From the IMG/VR virus record IMGVR_UViG_2547132415_000018: a stretch of DNA of 5,312 nt; one strand, 5' to 3'. The notes beneath the pieces are model-generated. The model was given only the letters and a program-made list of their open reading frames with translations, ran no database searches and had not been told where the DNA came from. Position 1 is the first letter of the stretch. The number at the start of each line of letters is the position of its first letter. Positions 145 through 5,312 of the stretch are shown here, in pieces. The stretch is from a virus (Duplodnaviria > Heunggongvirae > Uroviricota > Caudoviricetes). The translations under genes were made by a program, and so were the position numbers.

Positions 145-2286
145 ATGTCAACCGGATTACGTTTCACACTTGAAGTGGACGGCCTGCCACCGGACGCGTT
201 TGCGGTGGTTTCCTTTCATCTCACCCAGTCACTCTCTTCGCTCTTTTCCCTCGATCTCTCTCTGGTCAGCCAGCAGTTTCTCTCCCTTGAATTTGCGCAG
301 GTGCTGGACAAAATGGCCTACCTGACGGTATGGCAGGGCGATGAAGTACAGCGCCGGGTGAAAGGCGTGGTGACCTGGTTTGAACTCGGGGAGAACGACA
401 AAAACCAGATGCTGTACAGCATGAAGGTGCACCCGCCGCTGTGGCGTGCCGGTCTGCGCCAGAACTTCCGTATCTTCCAGAACGAGGACATCAAAAGCAT
501 CCTCGGCACGATGTTGCAGGAAAACGGGGTGACCGAATGGAGTCCGCTGTTCAGCGAGCCGCATCCTTCCCGTGAGTTTTGTGTCCAGTACGGTGAGACT
601 GATTACGATTTCCTGTGCCGGATGGCGGCGGAGGAAGGCATCTTCTTTTATGAGGAGCATGCTTACAAAAGTACCGACCAGAGCCTGGTGCTGTGCGACA
701 CAGTCCGCCATCTGCCCGAATCTTTTGAAATCCCATGGAACCCGAACACCCGTACCGAGGTGAGCACCCTCTGCATCAGCCAGTTCCGCTACAGCGCACA
801 AATCCGCCCTTCTTCCGTGGTGACCAAAGACTACACCTTTAAACGCCCCGGCTGGGCCGGACGTTTTGAACAGGAAGGCCAGCACCAGGACTACCAGCGC
901 ACGCAGTATGAAGTGTATGACTACCCCGGACGTTTCAAGGGTGCCCACGGGCAGAACTTTGCCCGCTGGCAGATGGACGGCTGGCGAAACAATGCAGAAA
1001 CCGCGCGGGGAATGAGCCGCTCGCCGGAGATATGGCCGGGACGGCGAATTGTGCTGACGGGGCATCCGCAGGCGAACCTGAACCGGGAATGGCAGGTGGT
1101 GGCAAGTGAACTGCACGGCGAGCAGCCGCAGGCGGTGCCGGGACGCAGGGGTTCAGGAACCACGCTGGATAACCATTTTGCGGTAATACCGGCAGACAGA
1201 ACATGGCGACCACAGCCGTTGCTGAAACCGCTGGTGGACGGCCCGCAGAGCGCCGTCGTGACGGGACCGGCAGGCGAGGAAATCTTCTGTGATGAACATG
1301 GCCGCGTGCGGGTGAAATTTAACTGGGACCGTTATAACCCGTCAAACCAGGACAGTTCATGCTGGATCCGTGTGGCACAGGCGTGGGCAGGCACCGGCTT
1401 TGGTAACCTGGCGATACCGCGTGTGGGTCAGGAGGTGATTGTGGACTTCCTCAACGGCGACCCGGACCAGCCGATCATTATGGGGCGTACCTACCACCAG
1501 GAAAACCGCACCCCCGGCAGCCTGCCGGGGACGAAGACGCAGATGACGATCCGCTCGAAAACCTATAAGGGCAGCGGGTTTAATGAACTGAAGTTTGACG
1601 ATGCGACAGGGAAAGAACAGGTCTACATCCACGCGCAGAAGAACATGAACACCGAGGTGCTGAATAACCGCACCACTGATGTGATAAACAACCATGCCGA
1701 AAAAATAGGTAACAACCAGGCGATCACCGTTACCAATAACCAGATCCAGAACATTGGCGTTAATCAGATACAGACGGTTGGTGTCAACCAGGTGGAAACG
1801 GTGGGCAGTAACCAGATTATCAAAGTGGGATCAAACCAGGTTGAAAAGGTGGGGATCATTCGTGCGCTGACGGTGGGTGTGGCTTACCAGACGACGGTAG
1901 GCGGCATTATGAATACCTCGGTGGCGTTGTTGCAGTCCTCACAGGTAGGGCTGCATAAATCACTGATGGTGGGAATGGGCTACAGCGTCAATGTGGGGAA
2001 TAACGTCACCTTCTCGGTGGGCAAGACAATGAAGGAAAACACCGGACAAACAGCAGTTTATTCTGCCGGTGAGCATCTTGAACTCTGCTGTGGTAAGGCA
2101 AGGCTGGTGCTGACGAAGGACGGAAGCATATTTCTCAATGGTACGCACATTCATCTGGAAGGGGAGTCGGATGTGAACGGTGATGCGCCAGTGATTAACT
2201 GGAACTGTGGTGCCACACAACCTGTACCGGATGCGCCTGTGCCGAAAGATTTACCCCCCGGAATGCCGGATATGCGGCAATTTTGA
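145..2286 (+). CDS. vgrG: Type VI secretion system spike/tip protein VgrG (713 aa)
   Basis: ORF 109..2286 from the supplied track. I prefer the internal ATG at 145 (MSTGLRFTLEVDGL...) because GGAGG lies 5 nt upstream, whereas the 109 start adds 12 hydrophobic residues with no ribosome-binding site. The translation has the typical VgrG layout: a gp27-like N-terminal region, a central region (VKFNWDRY...GQEVIVDFLNGDPDQPIIMGRTYH), and a gp5-like beta-helix made of VxxNQ octapeptide repeats. Confidence 0.92.
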   Translation: MSTGLRFTLEVDGLPPDAFAVVSFHLTQSLSSLFSLDLSLVSQQFLSLEFAQVLDKMAYLTVWQGDEVQRRVKGVVTWFELGENDKNQMLYSMKVHPPLWRAGLRQNFRIFQNEDIKSILGTMLQENGVTEWSPLFSEPHPSREFCVQYGETDYDFLCRMAAEEGIFFYEEHAYKSTDQSLVLCDTVRHLPESFEIPWNPNTRTEVSTLCISQFRYSAQIRPSSVVTKDYTFKRPGWAGRFEQEGQHQDYQRTQYEVYDYPGRFKGAHGQNFARWQMDGWRNNAETARGMSRSPEIWPGRRIVLTGHPQANLNREWQVVASELHGEQPQAVPGRRGSGTTLDNHFAVIPADRTWRPQPLLKPLVDGPQSAVVTGPAGEEIFCDEHGRVRVKFNWDRYNPSNQDSSCWIRVAQAWAGTGFGNLAIPRVGQEVIVDFLNGDPDQPIIMGRTYHQENRTPGSLPGTKTQMTIRSKTYKGSGFNELKFDDATGKEQVYIHAQKNMNTEVLNNRTTDVINNHAEKIGNNQAITVTNNQIQNIGVNQIQTVGVNQVETVGSNQIIKVGSNQVEKVGIIRALTVGVAYQTTVGGIMNTSVALLQSSQVGLHKSLMVGMGYSVNVGNNVTFSVGKTMKENTGQTAVYSAGEHLELCCGKARLVLTKDGSIFLNGTHIHLEGESDVNGDAPVINWNCGATQPVPDAPVPKDLPPGMPDMRQF
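1708..1851 (+). repeat. Six tandem 24-bp units encoding the VgrG beta-helix octapeptide repeats (GNNQAITV, TNNQIQNI, GVNQIQTV, GVNQVETV, GSNQIIKV, GSNQVEKV)
   Basis: The 8-codon periodicity with a conserved N-Q at positions 3-4 and V/I at position 8 is visible in the translation and as a recurring AAYCAG in the DNA. This is a coding-sequence repeat inside vgrG, not an independent element. Confidence 0.7.
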
Positions 2287-2361
2287 GTCAGGTGCAAAAA
2301 ATTAAAACGGAACTGGTGCAGTGACCAGATAAACCATATTAAAAGCAGAAGGAATTGATTC

Positions 2362-2640
2362 ATGGGCGGAAAACCGGCGGCGCGGCAGGGTGATATGACC
2401 CGCAAGGGACTGGATATTGTGCAGGGTTCAGCGGGGGTGCTGATAGGTGCGCCGACGGGAGTGGCCTGTTCGGTATGTCCGGGAGGGATTACCTATGCTA
2501 ACCCGGTGAACCCGCTGCTGGGTGCGAAGGTGCTACCGGGCGAGACGGACCTTGCGCTGCCCGGCCCGCTGCCGTTTATTCTTTCCCGCGCCTACAGCAG
2601 CTACCGGACCAGAACACCCGCGCCGGTGGGGGTGTTTGGT
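2362..2640 (+). other. PAAR domain coding region at the N-terminus of the Rhs protein (approximate extent)
   Basis: A PAAR motif at residues 5-8 (KPAARQGD) followed by a Gly/Cys-rich stretch ([14 protein letters not shown]). The domain boundary is estimated by eye, not computed. Confidence 0.5.
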
Positions 2641-4542
2641 CCCGGCTGGAAAGCGCCCTTCGATATCCGCTTACAGATACGCGATGAAGGCCTGATACTC
2701 AACGACAACGGCGGCAGGAGCATTCACTTTGAGCCGCTGTTTCCCGGCGAGATAAGCTACAGCCGCAGCGAGTCACTCTGGCTGGCGCGGGGCGGGGTGG
2801 CGGAGCAGCACAGTTCGCAGCCGCTAAGCGCACTCTGGCAGGTGCTGCCGGAAGATGTTCGCCTGAGTCCGCATGTGTACCTGGCGACAAACAGCCTTAA
2901 GAGGCCGTGGTGGATACTCAGCTGGCCGGAGCGGGTGCCGGGGGCGGACGAGGTGCTGCCGCCGGAGCCGCCCGCATACCGGGTGCTGACGGGCGTGGTG
3001 GACGGCTTCGGGCGGACGCTGACTTTCCACCGGGCGGCGGAGGGTGACGTGGCGGGCGCGGTGACGGGGGTGACGGACGGCGCGGGCCGCTGTTTTCACC
3101 TGGTGCTGACCACACAGGCGCAGCGGGCGGAAGCCTTCCGTAAACAGCGCGCCACGTCTTTATCTTCCCCTGCCGGTCCCCGTTCTGCTTCCTCTTCTTC
3201 TGCTTTCCCCGACACGCTGCCCGCCGGTACAGAATACGGTGCCGATAACGGTATCCGGCTGGAGGCGGTGTGGCTGACACACGACCCGGCATACCCGGAT
3301 GAACAGCCGACTGCGCCGCTGGCGCGCTACCTCTATGACCCGCTGGGCCGCCGGACGGGAAAACGGGTATGGCGGCGGGAGCGTGACCTGACGGGGTGGA
3401 TGTCGCTGTCGCGTAAACCGGAGGAGACCTGGTACGGGTGGGACGGTGACAGGCTGACCACTGTACAGACCCAACAGACAAGAATCCAGACGGTATACCA
3501 GCCGGGAAGCTTCACGCCGCTCCTGAGAATCGAAACAGAGAATGGCGAACAGGCGAAGGCGCGGCACCGGAGCCTAGCGGAGGTGTTGCAGGAGGACACG
3601 GGGGTGACGCTTCCGGCGGAGCTGGCGGTGATGCTGGGGAGGCTGGAGCGGGAACTGCGTGCGGGAGCGGTGAGTGCGGAGAGTGAGGCATGGCTTGCGC
3701 AGTGCGGGCTGACGGTGGAGCAGATGGAAAGCCAGATGGAGGCGGAATACATCCCGGAGCGGAGGCTGCATCTTTACCACTGTGACCACCGGGGACTGCC
3801 GCAGGCGCTCATCAGCCCGGAAGGGGAAACGGCGTGGTGCGGGGAGTATGACGAGTGGGGGAACCAGCTTAATGAGGAGAACCCGCATCACCTGTACCAG
3901 CCGTACCGTTTGCCGGGGCAGCAGTATGATGAGGAGTCGGGACTGTATTACAACCGTCACCGGTACTACGATCCGTTGCAGGGGCGGTATATCACCCAGG
4001 ATCCGATAGGGTTGAAGGGGGGAATAAATCTATACACGTATCCACTGGCACCAATACGTTACACTGATCCACTGGGGTTAGAACGAGTTATAAGTGTATA
4101 TGGGCCTCCCGCTCCAGACCGGGCAGGTGCTGAAACTCCTCTTGTTCTTACTGATATGACTGGAGGAGTGACTATTTATTATGATCCTGAAACAGGTGAT
4201 TCAATGACTTTTGATAGTAGCAATAGAATTGATCGTCGTTCTCAACGTGGTGCTGGTGATCCATATACAGGTGAAGTCGTTGGTTGTGAGACAAATGAAT
4301 CAGGAATATCGGCAGCATATGGCACAACGAAGATCTATACTACAGATACTAGAGCAAGATGGCTACATGGTGGGGGATCATCGTTGCGCGATCCTTATGC
4401 TCCTCGACAAGGCTGGAAACCAACTATGGGATGTACCCGTGCACAGAATGAAGATGTAGATGAGTTGTGTAAGAAAGTGACAAGTTGGATGTATTCGCAT
4501 CCTGGAGAGAGAATTAGATATGAACGTTTTAAGACACGTTAA
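2362..4542 (+). CDS. PAAR-domain Rhs-family polymorphic toxin, 726 aa, apparently lacking most of the YD-repeat shell through an in-frame internal deletion; carries a C-terminal toxin domain
   Basis: The ATG at 2362 is preceded by GAAGGAA (2348-2354). The N-terminus ([12 protein letters not shown]...[14 protein letters not shown]...[20 protein letters not shown]) is the PAAR-containing N-terminal region typical of E. coli RhsA-like proteins. The C-terminal part (YLYDPLGRR...[14 protein letters not shown]...[45 protein letters not shown]) is the conserved end of the Rhs core. Canonical Rhs proteins are about 1400 aa, so a 726-aa protein with both ends must be missing the shell. Confidence 0.88.
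3331..4080 (+). other. Retained C-terminal part of the Rhs core (Rhs repeat-associated core region) ending in PxxxxDPxGL
   Basis: The segment begins right after the inferred deletion junction ([14 protein letters not shown]). DPIGL is encoded at 4000-4014 and the terminal [10 protein letters not shown] ends at 4080, which is where Rhs C-terminal toxin domains normally begin. Confidence 0.6.
4081..4539 (+). other. C-terminal toxin domain of the Rhs protein (residues 574-726), candidate YkuD-like L,D-transpeptidase-fold peptidoglycan-targeting toxin
   Basis: The sequence becomes AT-rich immediately after the DPLGL demarcation. Residues 667-702 read WLHGGG-x18[14 protein letters not shown], which resembles the H-G...(S/T)-x-G-C-x-R-x-x-N-x-D catalytic signature of YkuD-type L,D-transpeptidases. 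The family assignment is by eye only. Confidence 0.45.
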
Positions 4543-4738
4543 TGCGATTAACATGGGAGTGTGCATTCTAATTTTGGTTATTGGATGTGCAAATGCTAAA
4601 GTTCTTAAACGATGTATATTACCCGCTCCTGATGGTGGCGTAGAAAAACTATCAAAACCCAACTTACATGGAGTAATTAAAAAAGTTGATTTGAACACAA
4701 ATGAAGCGGAAATTAAAATAAAAGAGGGGGGGCAGTGA
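4520..4738 (+). CDS. Small predicted lipoprotein (72 aa), candidate cognate immunity protein
   Basis: The ATG at 4520 overlaps the last 23 nt of the rhs gene and is preceded by GGAGAGAG (4504-4511). The N-terminus [23 protein letters not shown] has a charged n-region, a hydrophobic core and a lipobox-like VIGC. Its position directly downstream of an Rhs toxin domain is the classic immunity-gene position. The alternative start at ATG 4553 lacks a good ribosome-binding site. Confidence 0.5.
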
Positions 4739-4911
4739 GTTTTATTTTTAATGAGGAAACATTGTATTTTACTGTTTTTGGTGGGGATTTTATTATGGAT
4801 GATTTAAAAAAAGTAAAAAATACGGAAGCATGGGTATGGTATAAAAATTGCGATAGTAAAAATAAAAATGTGGCAGTTGAACTTCTTCAAATCTACGAAT
4901 TGCATCAATGA
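4735..4911 (+). CDS. Hypothetical small protein (58 aa from GTG 4735; 38 aa if started at ATG 4795)
   Basis: The ORF is not in the supplied track because it starts with GTG. That GTG overlaps the stop of the upstream ORF (GTGA) and is preceded by the strong purine-rich AGAGGGGGGG (4722-4732). The AT-rich composition and small size make this a weak call. Confidence 0.25.
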   Translation: MSFIFNEETLYFTVFGGDFIMDDLKKVKNTEAWVWYKNCDSKNKNVAVELLQIYELHQ

Positions 4912-4951
4912 AAAATATAGTTAAATAGAGAAGGTTATTAATAGCAGGAAA

Positions 4952-4976
4952 AGCATCACGTGATGCTGATTTTTTG
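4952..4976 (+). terminator. Candidate rho-independent terminator (palindrome AGCATCAC/GTGATGCT followed by a T6 run)
   Basis: A perfect 8+8 inverted repeat at 4952-4967 is followed by GA then TTTTTT (4970-4975), downstream of the toxin, immunity and small-ORF cluster. The very short loop is a caveat; it could instead be a protein-binding palindrome. Confidence 0.4.
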
Positions 4977-5312
4977 CACTAAATAATTCGCATTTTATGT
5001 TTAAAAATTGAGATATTCCTTATTACCTAAAGCTGTTTTTTATTGCTTATACATGATCAAATACTCCTTACATAATTAAGGAGAACAAAATGGAACTTAA
5101 AAAATTGATGGAGCATATTTCTATTATCCCCGATTACAGACAAGCCTGGAAAGTGGAACATAAATTATCGGATATTCTACTGTTGACTATTTGTGCCGTT
5201 ATTTCTGGTGCAGAAGGTTGGGAAGATATAGAGGATTTTGGGGAAACACATCTCGATTTTTTGAAGCAATATGGTGATTTTGAAAATGGCATTCCTGTTC
5301 ACGATACCATTG
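4977..5312 (+). mobile_element. Probable left part of an H-repeat (ISAs1-family) insertion element; left boundary not determined
   Basis: Inferred only from the transposase gene at 5090 onward. I could not identify the terminal inverted repeat, so the start coordinate is a placeholder somewhere between 4912 and 5089. Confidence 0.3.
5090..5312 (+). CDS. ISAs1-family transposase (H-repeat-associated protein), N-terminal 74 codons only; the gene continues past the window end
   Basis: The ATG at 5090 is preceded by AAGGAG (5078-5083). The translation [74 protein letters not shown] matches, from memory, the N-terminus of E. coli H-repeat-associated proteins (YhhI/YdcC-type). There is no stop before the window edge. 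Confidence 0.85.

Follow-up and report, generated by a model that had tools for sequence, protein, structure and literature searches.

Organisation of the Rhs module

The stretch of DNA analysed here (5,312 nt, hereafter the window) carries an E. coli-type Rhs module, in which vgrG and rhs are followed by two small open reading frames (ORFs), a terminator-like hairpin and an ISAs1/H-repeat transposase gene. Its features are, in their order along the window:

145–2286, + strand: vgrG, T6SS spike protein of 713 aa (Pfam Phage_GPD, 1.8e-74; Gp5_trimer_C; Phage_base_V)
2362–4542, + strand: Rhs toxin gene, internally deleted, 726 aa (Pfam DUF6531, RHS)
4081–4542, + strand: Rhs C-terminal toxin domain, after the DPLGL motif (4066–4080); Pfam PF03734, YkuD
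4520–4738, + strand: ORF1, 5′ part of the putative immunity gene, 72 aa; putative signal peptide, lipobox VIGC, motif C-x-LPxPDGG
4726–4732, + strand: G7 homopolymer, −1 allele of a G8 tract that codes for Gly-Gly at a predicted turn between beta strands 2 and 3
4732–4911, + strand: 3′ part of the putative immunity gene, in the −1 frame; conserved FGGD, W107 and C111
4952–4977, + strand: terminator-like hairpin (AGCATCACGTGATGCT) followed by a T-run, 3′ of the whole 130-aa gene (from a consensus scan only)
5090–5312, + strand: start of an ISAs1-family (H-repeat) transposase gene, which runs off the window end (Pfam DDE_Tnp_1_assoc, 7e-26)

In homologous loci, the first gene is likewise annotated as VgrG and an ISAs1 transposase is annotated at the same place downstream. 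The hairpin portion of the terminator-like element spans 4952–4967; a search against Rfam gave no match within the window. For the N-terminal region of the Rhs protein, which an earlier note had read as PAAR from the sequence alone, no PAAR family was returned by Pfam. The Rhs core has a GC content of 65%, the last 520 nt of rhs 44% and the small ORFs 28–36%; swapped-in toxin/immunity cassettes are usually recognised by a drop of this kind. With vgrG upstream, the first small ORF starts at 4520, still within the variable C-terminal toxin end of rhs, and the two share 23 nt; this is the placement of an Rhs/T6SS toxin-immunity pair, and overlaps are frequent in such pairs. In the spacer after the small ORFs, position 4931 carries a private substitution (A in the window versus G in 9/9 compared loci).

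The sequence-only reading had pointed to a run of seven G at 4726–4732, followed by the TGA stop of the first ORF at 4736–4738 and an overlapping GTG at 4735. All of these coordinates agree with the window, in which positions 4722–4740 read AAGAGGGGGGGCAGTGAGT. ORF1, with its lipobox VIGC encoded at nt 4577–4588 (Cys23), ends prematurely at this TGA because of a frameshift, while the 3′ part is mechanically listed as ORF2, starting with the GTG at 4735–4737 and spanning 4735–4911 (58 aa). When the tract was edited in silico, insertion of one G yielded a single ORF of 130 aa and removal of two G yielded one of 129 aa. The G7 tract is the longest G or C run of the window; the runner-up is a G6 run (GGGGGG) at 4017–4022, located in the region of the GC drop just upstream of the switch from the conserved Rhs core to the variable toxin domain. 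Shuffling gave a run of at least seven G in 0.6% of cases for the AT-rich 392-nt gene and in about 55% for the entire G-rich window; the tract is therefore locally unusual, without any surprise at the level of the window. Tracts of at least seven G or C were confined to this one and a single other in 258 kb of E. coli chromosome.

The two small ORFs are parts of one gene

The translation obtained after addition of one G is identical to RefSeq WP_001101835.1, a protein of 130 aa that is annotated as a single CDS beside a 1410-aa Rhs protein in strains with eight G in the tract. The earlier expectation of a fused lipoprotein of about 130 aa upon addition of one G is thus borne out, and the product corresponds to an annotated gene. 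An exhaustive HMMER search gave 64 matches to the 130-aa protein, among them single proteins of 117–151 aa; the short matches turned out to be fragments from E. coli frameshift alleles. Distant homologues, 23–45% identical to the 130-aa protein (alignment A1, P0025–P0080), align in one stretch over residues ~17–127 and thereby cross the junction at residue 72. Conserved positions lie before the break (C32, L34, P35, D38, G51) as well as after it (G88, G89, W107, C111), while the Gly-Gly encoded by the tract sits in a variable loop.

Structure prediction led to the same picture. With the alignment as input, AlphaFold returned a model with a pLDDT of 89 and a pTM of 0.76, consisting of a signal helix and one small beta-barrel, in which the junction falls into a hairpin turn between strands 62–67 and 72–76 (beta2–beta3). 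The prediction for the 130-aa protein from a single sequence was unusable (pLDDT 32). In a Foldseek comparison with the PDB, the nearest folds were small OB-like barrels, all of them weak matches that gave no functional lead. Since the homologues are single proteins across the junction and the model is one beta-barrel, the two ORFs do not represent two genes. Judged from alignment and model, both are halves of one 130-residue gene, a putative immunity gene, that carries a −1 frameshift.

It had also been considered that the tract might simply be a strong Shine-Dalgarno sequence that couples the translation of two genuine small genes. Indeed, a GAGG within the G-rich run is located 7 nt upstream of the GTG, the stop and start codons overlap (GTGA), and RefSeq lists two hypothetical proteins in strains with seven G. 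Such a pair of genes should have counterparts elsewhere, yet among the HMMER matches and in alignment A1 we found no separate ORF1-like and ORF2-like genes in relatives, and all distant homologues are single proteins. In addition, ORF2 lacks a signal peptide of its own, the conserved residues and the single barrel extend over both ORFs, and the gene is a single ORF in about 71–76% of E. coli copies. We thus reject translational coupling of two genes, to which we give next to no credence.

A putative exported immunity protein for a YkuD-like toxin

The last 153 residues of the Rhs protein, located after a PxxxxDPxGL-type motif that ends at nt 4080, matched PF03734 (YkuD) with 25.1 bits, slightly above the cut-off of 23.4. 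The domain contains the sequence WLHGGG...TMGCTRAQN, a motif of the His ... (S/T)xGC type. These features suggest a YkuD/L,D-transpeptidase-like fold, and a toxin with this fold would presumably have periplasmic peptidoglycan as its target. NCBIfam holds no family for the toxin domain, and a phmmer search against all PDB sequences gave no meaningful hit and no YkuD-type chain at E ≤ 1, in a set that possibly does not include the chain of Tlde1a, whose crystal structure is published (PMC9638812). As no such chain was found, the domain may represent an uncharacterised branch of peptidoglycan-targeting T6SS toxins.

A toxin directed against peptidoglycan fits an exported immunity protein, as suggested by the lipobox of the 130-aa protein. 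The gene is thus probably the cognate immunity gene of the adjacent YkuD-like Rhs toxin tip and would encode a periplasmic protein or lipoprotein. Putative signal peptides were also recognised in the sequences of its homologues. One homologue (P0025, 50% identical) is encoded in an orphan immunity-gene island together with Imm57, Rap1a and MafI2 (locus L010), and another adjoins an Rhs fragment. Neither Pfam nor NCBIfam holds a family for the immunity protein; a Pfam hit to DUF4367 was below threshold and concerned the E. coli member only, and was not used. The proteins of this putative family comprise about 120–150 aa, appear to be exported and share the pattern C-x-LPxPDGG ... FGGD ... W ... 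C, whose two conserved cysteines possibly form a disulfide.

Tract length in the E. coli population

We searched complete E. coli genomes with exact 80–83-mers, one for each tract length, and found the segment in about 1012–1015 of them; each raw k-mer count is inflated by two partial matches. The distribution was as follows:

G8 (exact 82-mer): 718/1015 raw, ~716/~1012 corrected
G7 (exact 81-mer): 184/1015 raw, ~182/~1012 corrected
G9: ~50 complete genomes
G6: ~12 complete genomes
G10: at least 5 complete genomes

Calls of G6 and G10 cluster in few assembly series, so these counts are less secure than those of G7 and G8, and some of the G6, G9 and G10 calls stem from assembly series possibly affected by long-read homopolymer errors. 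Among 41 metagenome contigs, 28 carry G8, ten carry G7 and three carry GGGGGGAG (G6AG). The last of these is a synonymous change of GGG to GGA, which breaks up the G run without shifting the frame; three metagenome loci (L037, L041, L050) have it, on both the L19 and the W19 haplotype, and it may be a 'stabilised' version of the gene. G8 and G6AG are the only states in frame, and about 25% of all copies are out of frame. A comparison of tract length across strains, as proposed in the sequence-only reading, thus gives a range from 6 to 10 with G8 as the commonest state, and the homologous loci are not uniformly G7. Among GTDB species representatives, a pattern scan detected no copy beyond the sampled E. 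coli genomes. The broken G7 allele is real and present in ~18–24%, roughly a fifth to a quarter, of the sampled gene-bearing sequences.

The G7 allele is heritable and recurrent

Homopolymers are classic sites of indel errors, and the scattered G6, G9 and G10 calls in some RefSeq assembly series are a reminder that a G7 in the window could in principle be a sequencing or assembly error of a true G8. The closest relatives of the window speak against this. AR_0061 and MDK9L1 share the internal deletion of the Rhs gene with the window, have two small ORFs annotated and match its 601 bases around the tract without gaps. AR_0061 has 4 mismatches to the window over nt 1500–5312, and its tract is G7. 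Given the G7 of AR_0061 and the gap-free match of both relatives, a sequencing error in the window is unlikely. Moreover, G7 was present in ~182 complete genomes from many laboratories, in nine assemblies of O121:H19 and in 10/41 metagenome contigs, many of which have SPAdes-style names that suggest short-read assembly. We consequently regard the indel error, one of the options raised earlier, as quite improbable.

In total, 79 of the 83 mismatches between AR_0061 and the window were located in the first 1.4 kb of vgrG (134–1400), the other 3.8 kb being nearly identical. This suggests a mosaic or recombinant 5′ region of vgrG in the window.

Within clones, the tract is inherited. All nine O121:H19 assemblies, which are independent, show the split two-ORF annotation; G7 was read directly in one of them (L004), while match spans of 81 nt point to G7 in five others. 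Five passage derivatives of Ec-050 are all G9, as are six isolates of Z1323CEC, and the sampled BL21 derivatives, BL21(RP) and T7Express_LysY, have G8. Across clones, alleles were mapped by haplotype SNPs inside the cassette. We set aside a phylogeny based on fadE because the cassette is found at two different chromosomal loci, one being the T6SS-1 locus at aspV and the other the rhsE locus, with yncH and pptA on either side. Both sites include copies with G7, which was seen on three haplotypes of the cassette; at least two of these haplotypes also occur with G8. In the metagenomes, each of the tract states G7, G8 and G6AG was seen on both the L19 and the W19 background. The G7 allele is thus heritable and recurrent in E. 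coli.

Some further observations concern the location of the cassette. In O121:H19 (L004) and CV839-06 (L009), the toxin/immunity cassette with G7 resides at the rhsE locus between yncH and pptA, and in O121:H19 the Rhs gene at this locus is itself frameshifted. In BL21(RP) (L005, 19852–20223), the immunity gene is present as an orphan with G8, in frame but with its 5′ end replaced. This copy is common to the BL21 lineage, has no Rhs gene beside it and came to lie next to mltA through a rearrangement.

According to PMC8510543, the indel rate in E. coli rises exponentially with run length, and a G:C run of 8 bp is an outlier in this genome. The tract lengths from 6 to 10, together with their recurrence on several haplotypes, support repeated slippage at a mutational hotspot.

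Switching or recoding at the tract

Following the sequence-only reading, the tract could also be a slipped-strand switch for phase variation. One part of this proposal stands, as the spread of lengths from 6 to 10 over several haplotypes points to an origin by slippage. The other part, a fast and regulated switching, is made less likely by the stability of the alleles in clones. In its strong form, the proposal would make the G8 tract a contingency locus kept by selection, a reversible ON/OFF switch of immunity with G7 as the OFF state. Strain-variable tract states that toggle the frame (G6, G7, G8, G9 and G10) were indeed seen, about 25% of the population is out of frame, and the same states recur on different haplotypes. 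It is also in line with such a locus that Gly-Gly is encoded as GGG GGG plus G in a gene of 33% GC, in a non-conserved loop without protein constraint. A counter-example to the stability in clones is provided by the strains E8, E1433 and E1535 (L060, L061, L062), which are near-identical, originate from three continents and have tracts of G7, G9 and G6, respectively; over 20 kb, they differ by 5 SNPs, one T7/T8 run and the G tract. This case may, however, reflect long-read homopolymer errors, as the T7/T8 run differs too. In these three loci, the T7/T8 run (locus position ~1660) leads to a frameshift in another hypothetical gene.

Further points weigh against selection for a switch. The alleles are stable within clones: the split annotation is found in 9/9 assemblies of O121:H19 with G7 confirmed in six, and the G9 of Ec-050 and Z1323CEC is constant. 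Eight G are short for fast switching in a species proficient in mismatch repair, and the synonymous interrupted allele G6AG exists. To our knowledge, no benefit of switching immunity off has been described, which we count against a selected switch as well. Literature searches yielded no description of this tract, nor of phase-variable T6SS immunity. Taken together, we consider a contingency locus unlikely, although it is the alternative to which we give the greatest weight.

Could the split gene instead be rescued by recoding? A −1 ribosomal slip or transcriptional slippage would then produce a low level of the 130-aa protein of the G8 allele, sufficient for immunity. The sequence offers some grounds for this idea. 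The codons in the frame of ORF1, GA(G GGG GGG) CAG TGA, contain a heptamer of the X_XXY_YYZ type, and a tandem −1 slip on G_GGG_GGG would give ...E G G A V S F..., identical to the product of G8. Rescue of this kind would also explain that strains with G7 keep an intact toxin gene. Nevertheless, a downstream stimulatory RNA structure is absent (fold z = 0.22), most homologous loci are plainly in frame, so that the two-frame layout is not conserved, and G9 and G6 persist although they are beyond rescue by a −1 slip. We know of no precedent for efficient slippage on G7 in E. coli. Recoding hence appears very unlikely, even less probable than an error in the sequence.

Taking both ideas together, there is a slim chance that E. 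coli lineages use the G8 tract, as a genuine contingency switch or through recoding, to turn off or attenuate reversibly the immunity to their own Rhs peptidoglycan toxin. If so, T6SS immunity would be phase-variable at this gene, with possible effects on kin discrimination or on what it costs to carry the immunity protein.

A frameshift allele in a decaying module

We are left with the reading that we favour with a probability of roughly 0.85: G7 is a −1 frameshift allele of the G8 tract in a single gene for an exported immunity protein against the YkuD-like Rhs toxin. In the chain of events that we propose, replication slippage on a rare 8-bp G:C run would remove one G. Translation of the G7 allele would end after residue 72, leaving the C-terminal 58 residues in another frame and without a signal peptide. 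In strains with an intact gene, the YkuD-like tip of Rhs would attack peptidoglycan in the periplasm and would be neutralised there by the 130-aa barrel, exported by way of a lipoprotein signal with Cys23. As the stop follows residue 72 and the rest is out of frame, the G7 allele most likely yields no functional immunity protein.

But, why should strains keep a toxin without its immunity protein? An intact-looking Rhs protein of 1410 aa and T6SS genes are present in several G7 strains, such as O22:H8 RM10809-3 and NCTC9967. Loss of immunity does not sit easily with this combination, except where the system is silent or the split gene leaky. Tolerance of G7 may thus relate to a silent system, a leaky allele or an active N-terminal fragment.

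For the window itself, the situation differs. Its Rhs protein has 726 aa versus 1410 aa, with residues 1 to ~330 joined in frame to 1005–1410. The deletion of ~680 aa, with a breakpoint near nt 3325–3330 as located by blastp and blastn against the Rhs gene of a homologous locus (L001), takes out most of the YD-repeat shell, and the same deleted form is found in AR_0061 and MDK9L1. The T6SS cluster of AR_0061 is degraded too, with partial tssG and vasL and an internal stop in hcp. Given the deleted Rhs shell, the module in the window is decaying, and the frameshift is one of several lesions.

Relation to known systems and implications

The allele resembles known frameshift alleles caused by homopolymer slippage in that an intragenic run of 8 G:C varies in length from 6 to 10 and the same change recurs on several haplotypes. 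It differs from them in affecting a T6SS/Rhs immunity gene, in its frequency of ~18–24% and in its frequent location beside an intact toxin gene. With the poly-G contingency loci of Campylobacter, Neisseria and Haemophilus, it shares an intragenic poly-G length polymorphism that toggles the frame; unlike in those loci, the tract is short, mismatch repair is present and the alleles are stable in clones.

A functional analogy can be drawn to Tlde1/Tldi1 of Salmonella, in which an L,D-transpeptidase-like effector of the T6SS is paired with an immunity protein of the periplasm (PMC9638812). Both pairs have a YkuD-type H...GC(x)R motif, an expected target in periplasmic peptidoglycan and a putative exported immunity protein encoded immediately downstream. 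In the module analysed here, in contrast, the toxin is the C-terminal tip of an Rhs protein and not a stand-alone effector, and we do not file the domain as a member of the Tlde1 family. The order of genes (vgrG-rhs-immunity-ISAs1/H-repeat), the GC drop at the cassette, the overlap of immunity gene and rhs and the ISAs1 element downstream are identical to those of E. coli Rhs elements, which contain orphan toxin/immunity cassettes, except that the copy in the window lacks ~680 residues of the shell and carries a frameshifted immunity allele.

The mutation is of an ordinary kind, and neither a new mechanism nor a new kind of system is involved. Its value lies in annotation, with a mild interest for the population biology of the T6SS. 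The RefSeq 'hypothetical proteins' WP_001101836 and WP_000008098, together with their variants in strains with G7, G9 and G6, can be annotated as one frameshifted gene, in all probability an immunity gene. The intact 130-aa protein would represent an uncharacterised exported immunity family that is absent from Pfam and acts as partner of a YkuD-like Rhs toxin. Judged from the tract, about a quarter of the E. coli strains that bear the cassette appear to carry an immunity gene that is broken, often next to a toxin gene that is intact. The locus may thus serve as a natural experiment on the extent to which T6SS immunity is required, and as a case in which a rare 8-bp G:C run would drive recurrent gene loss.
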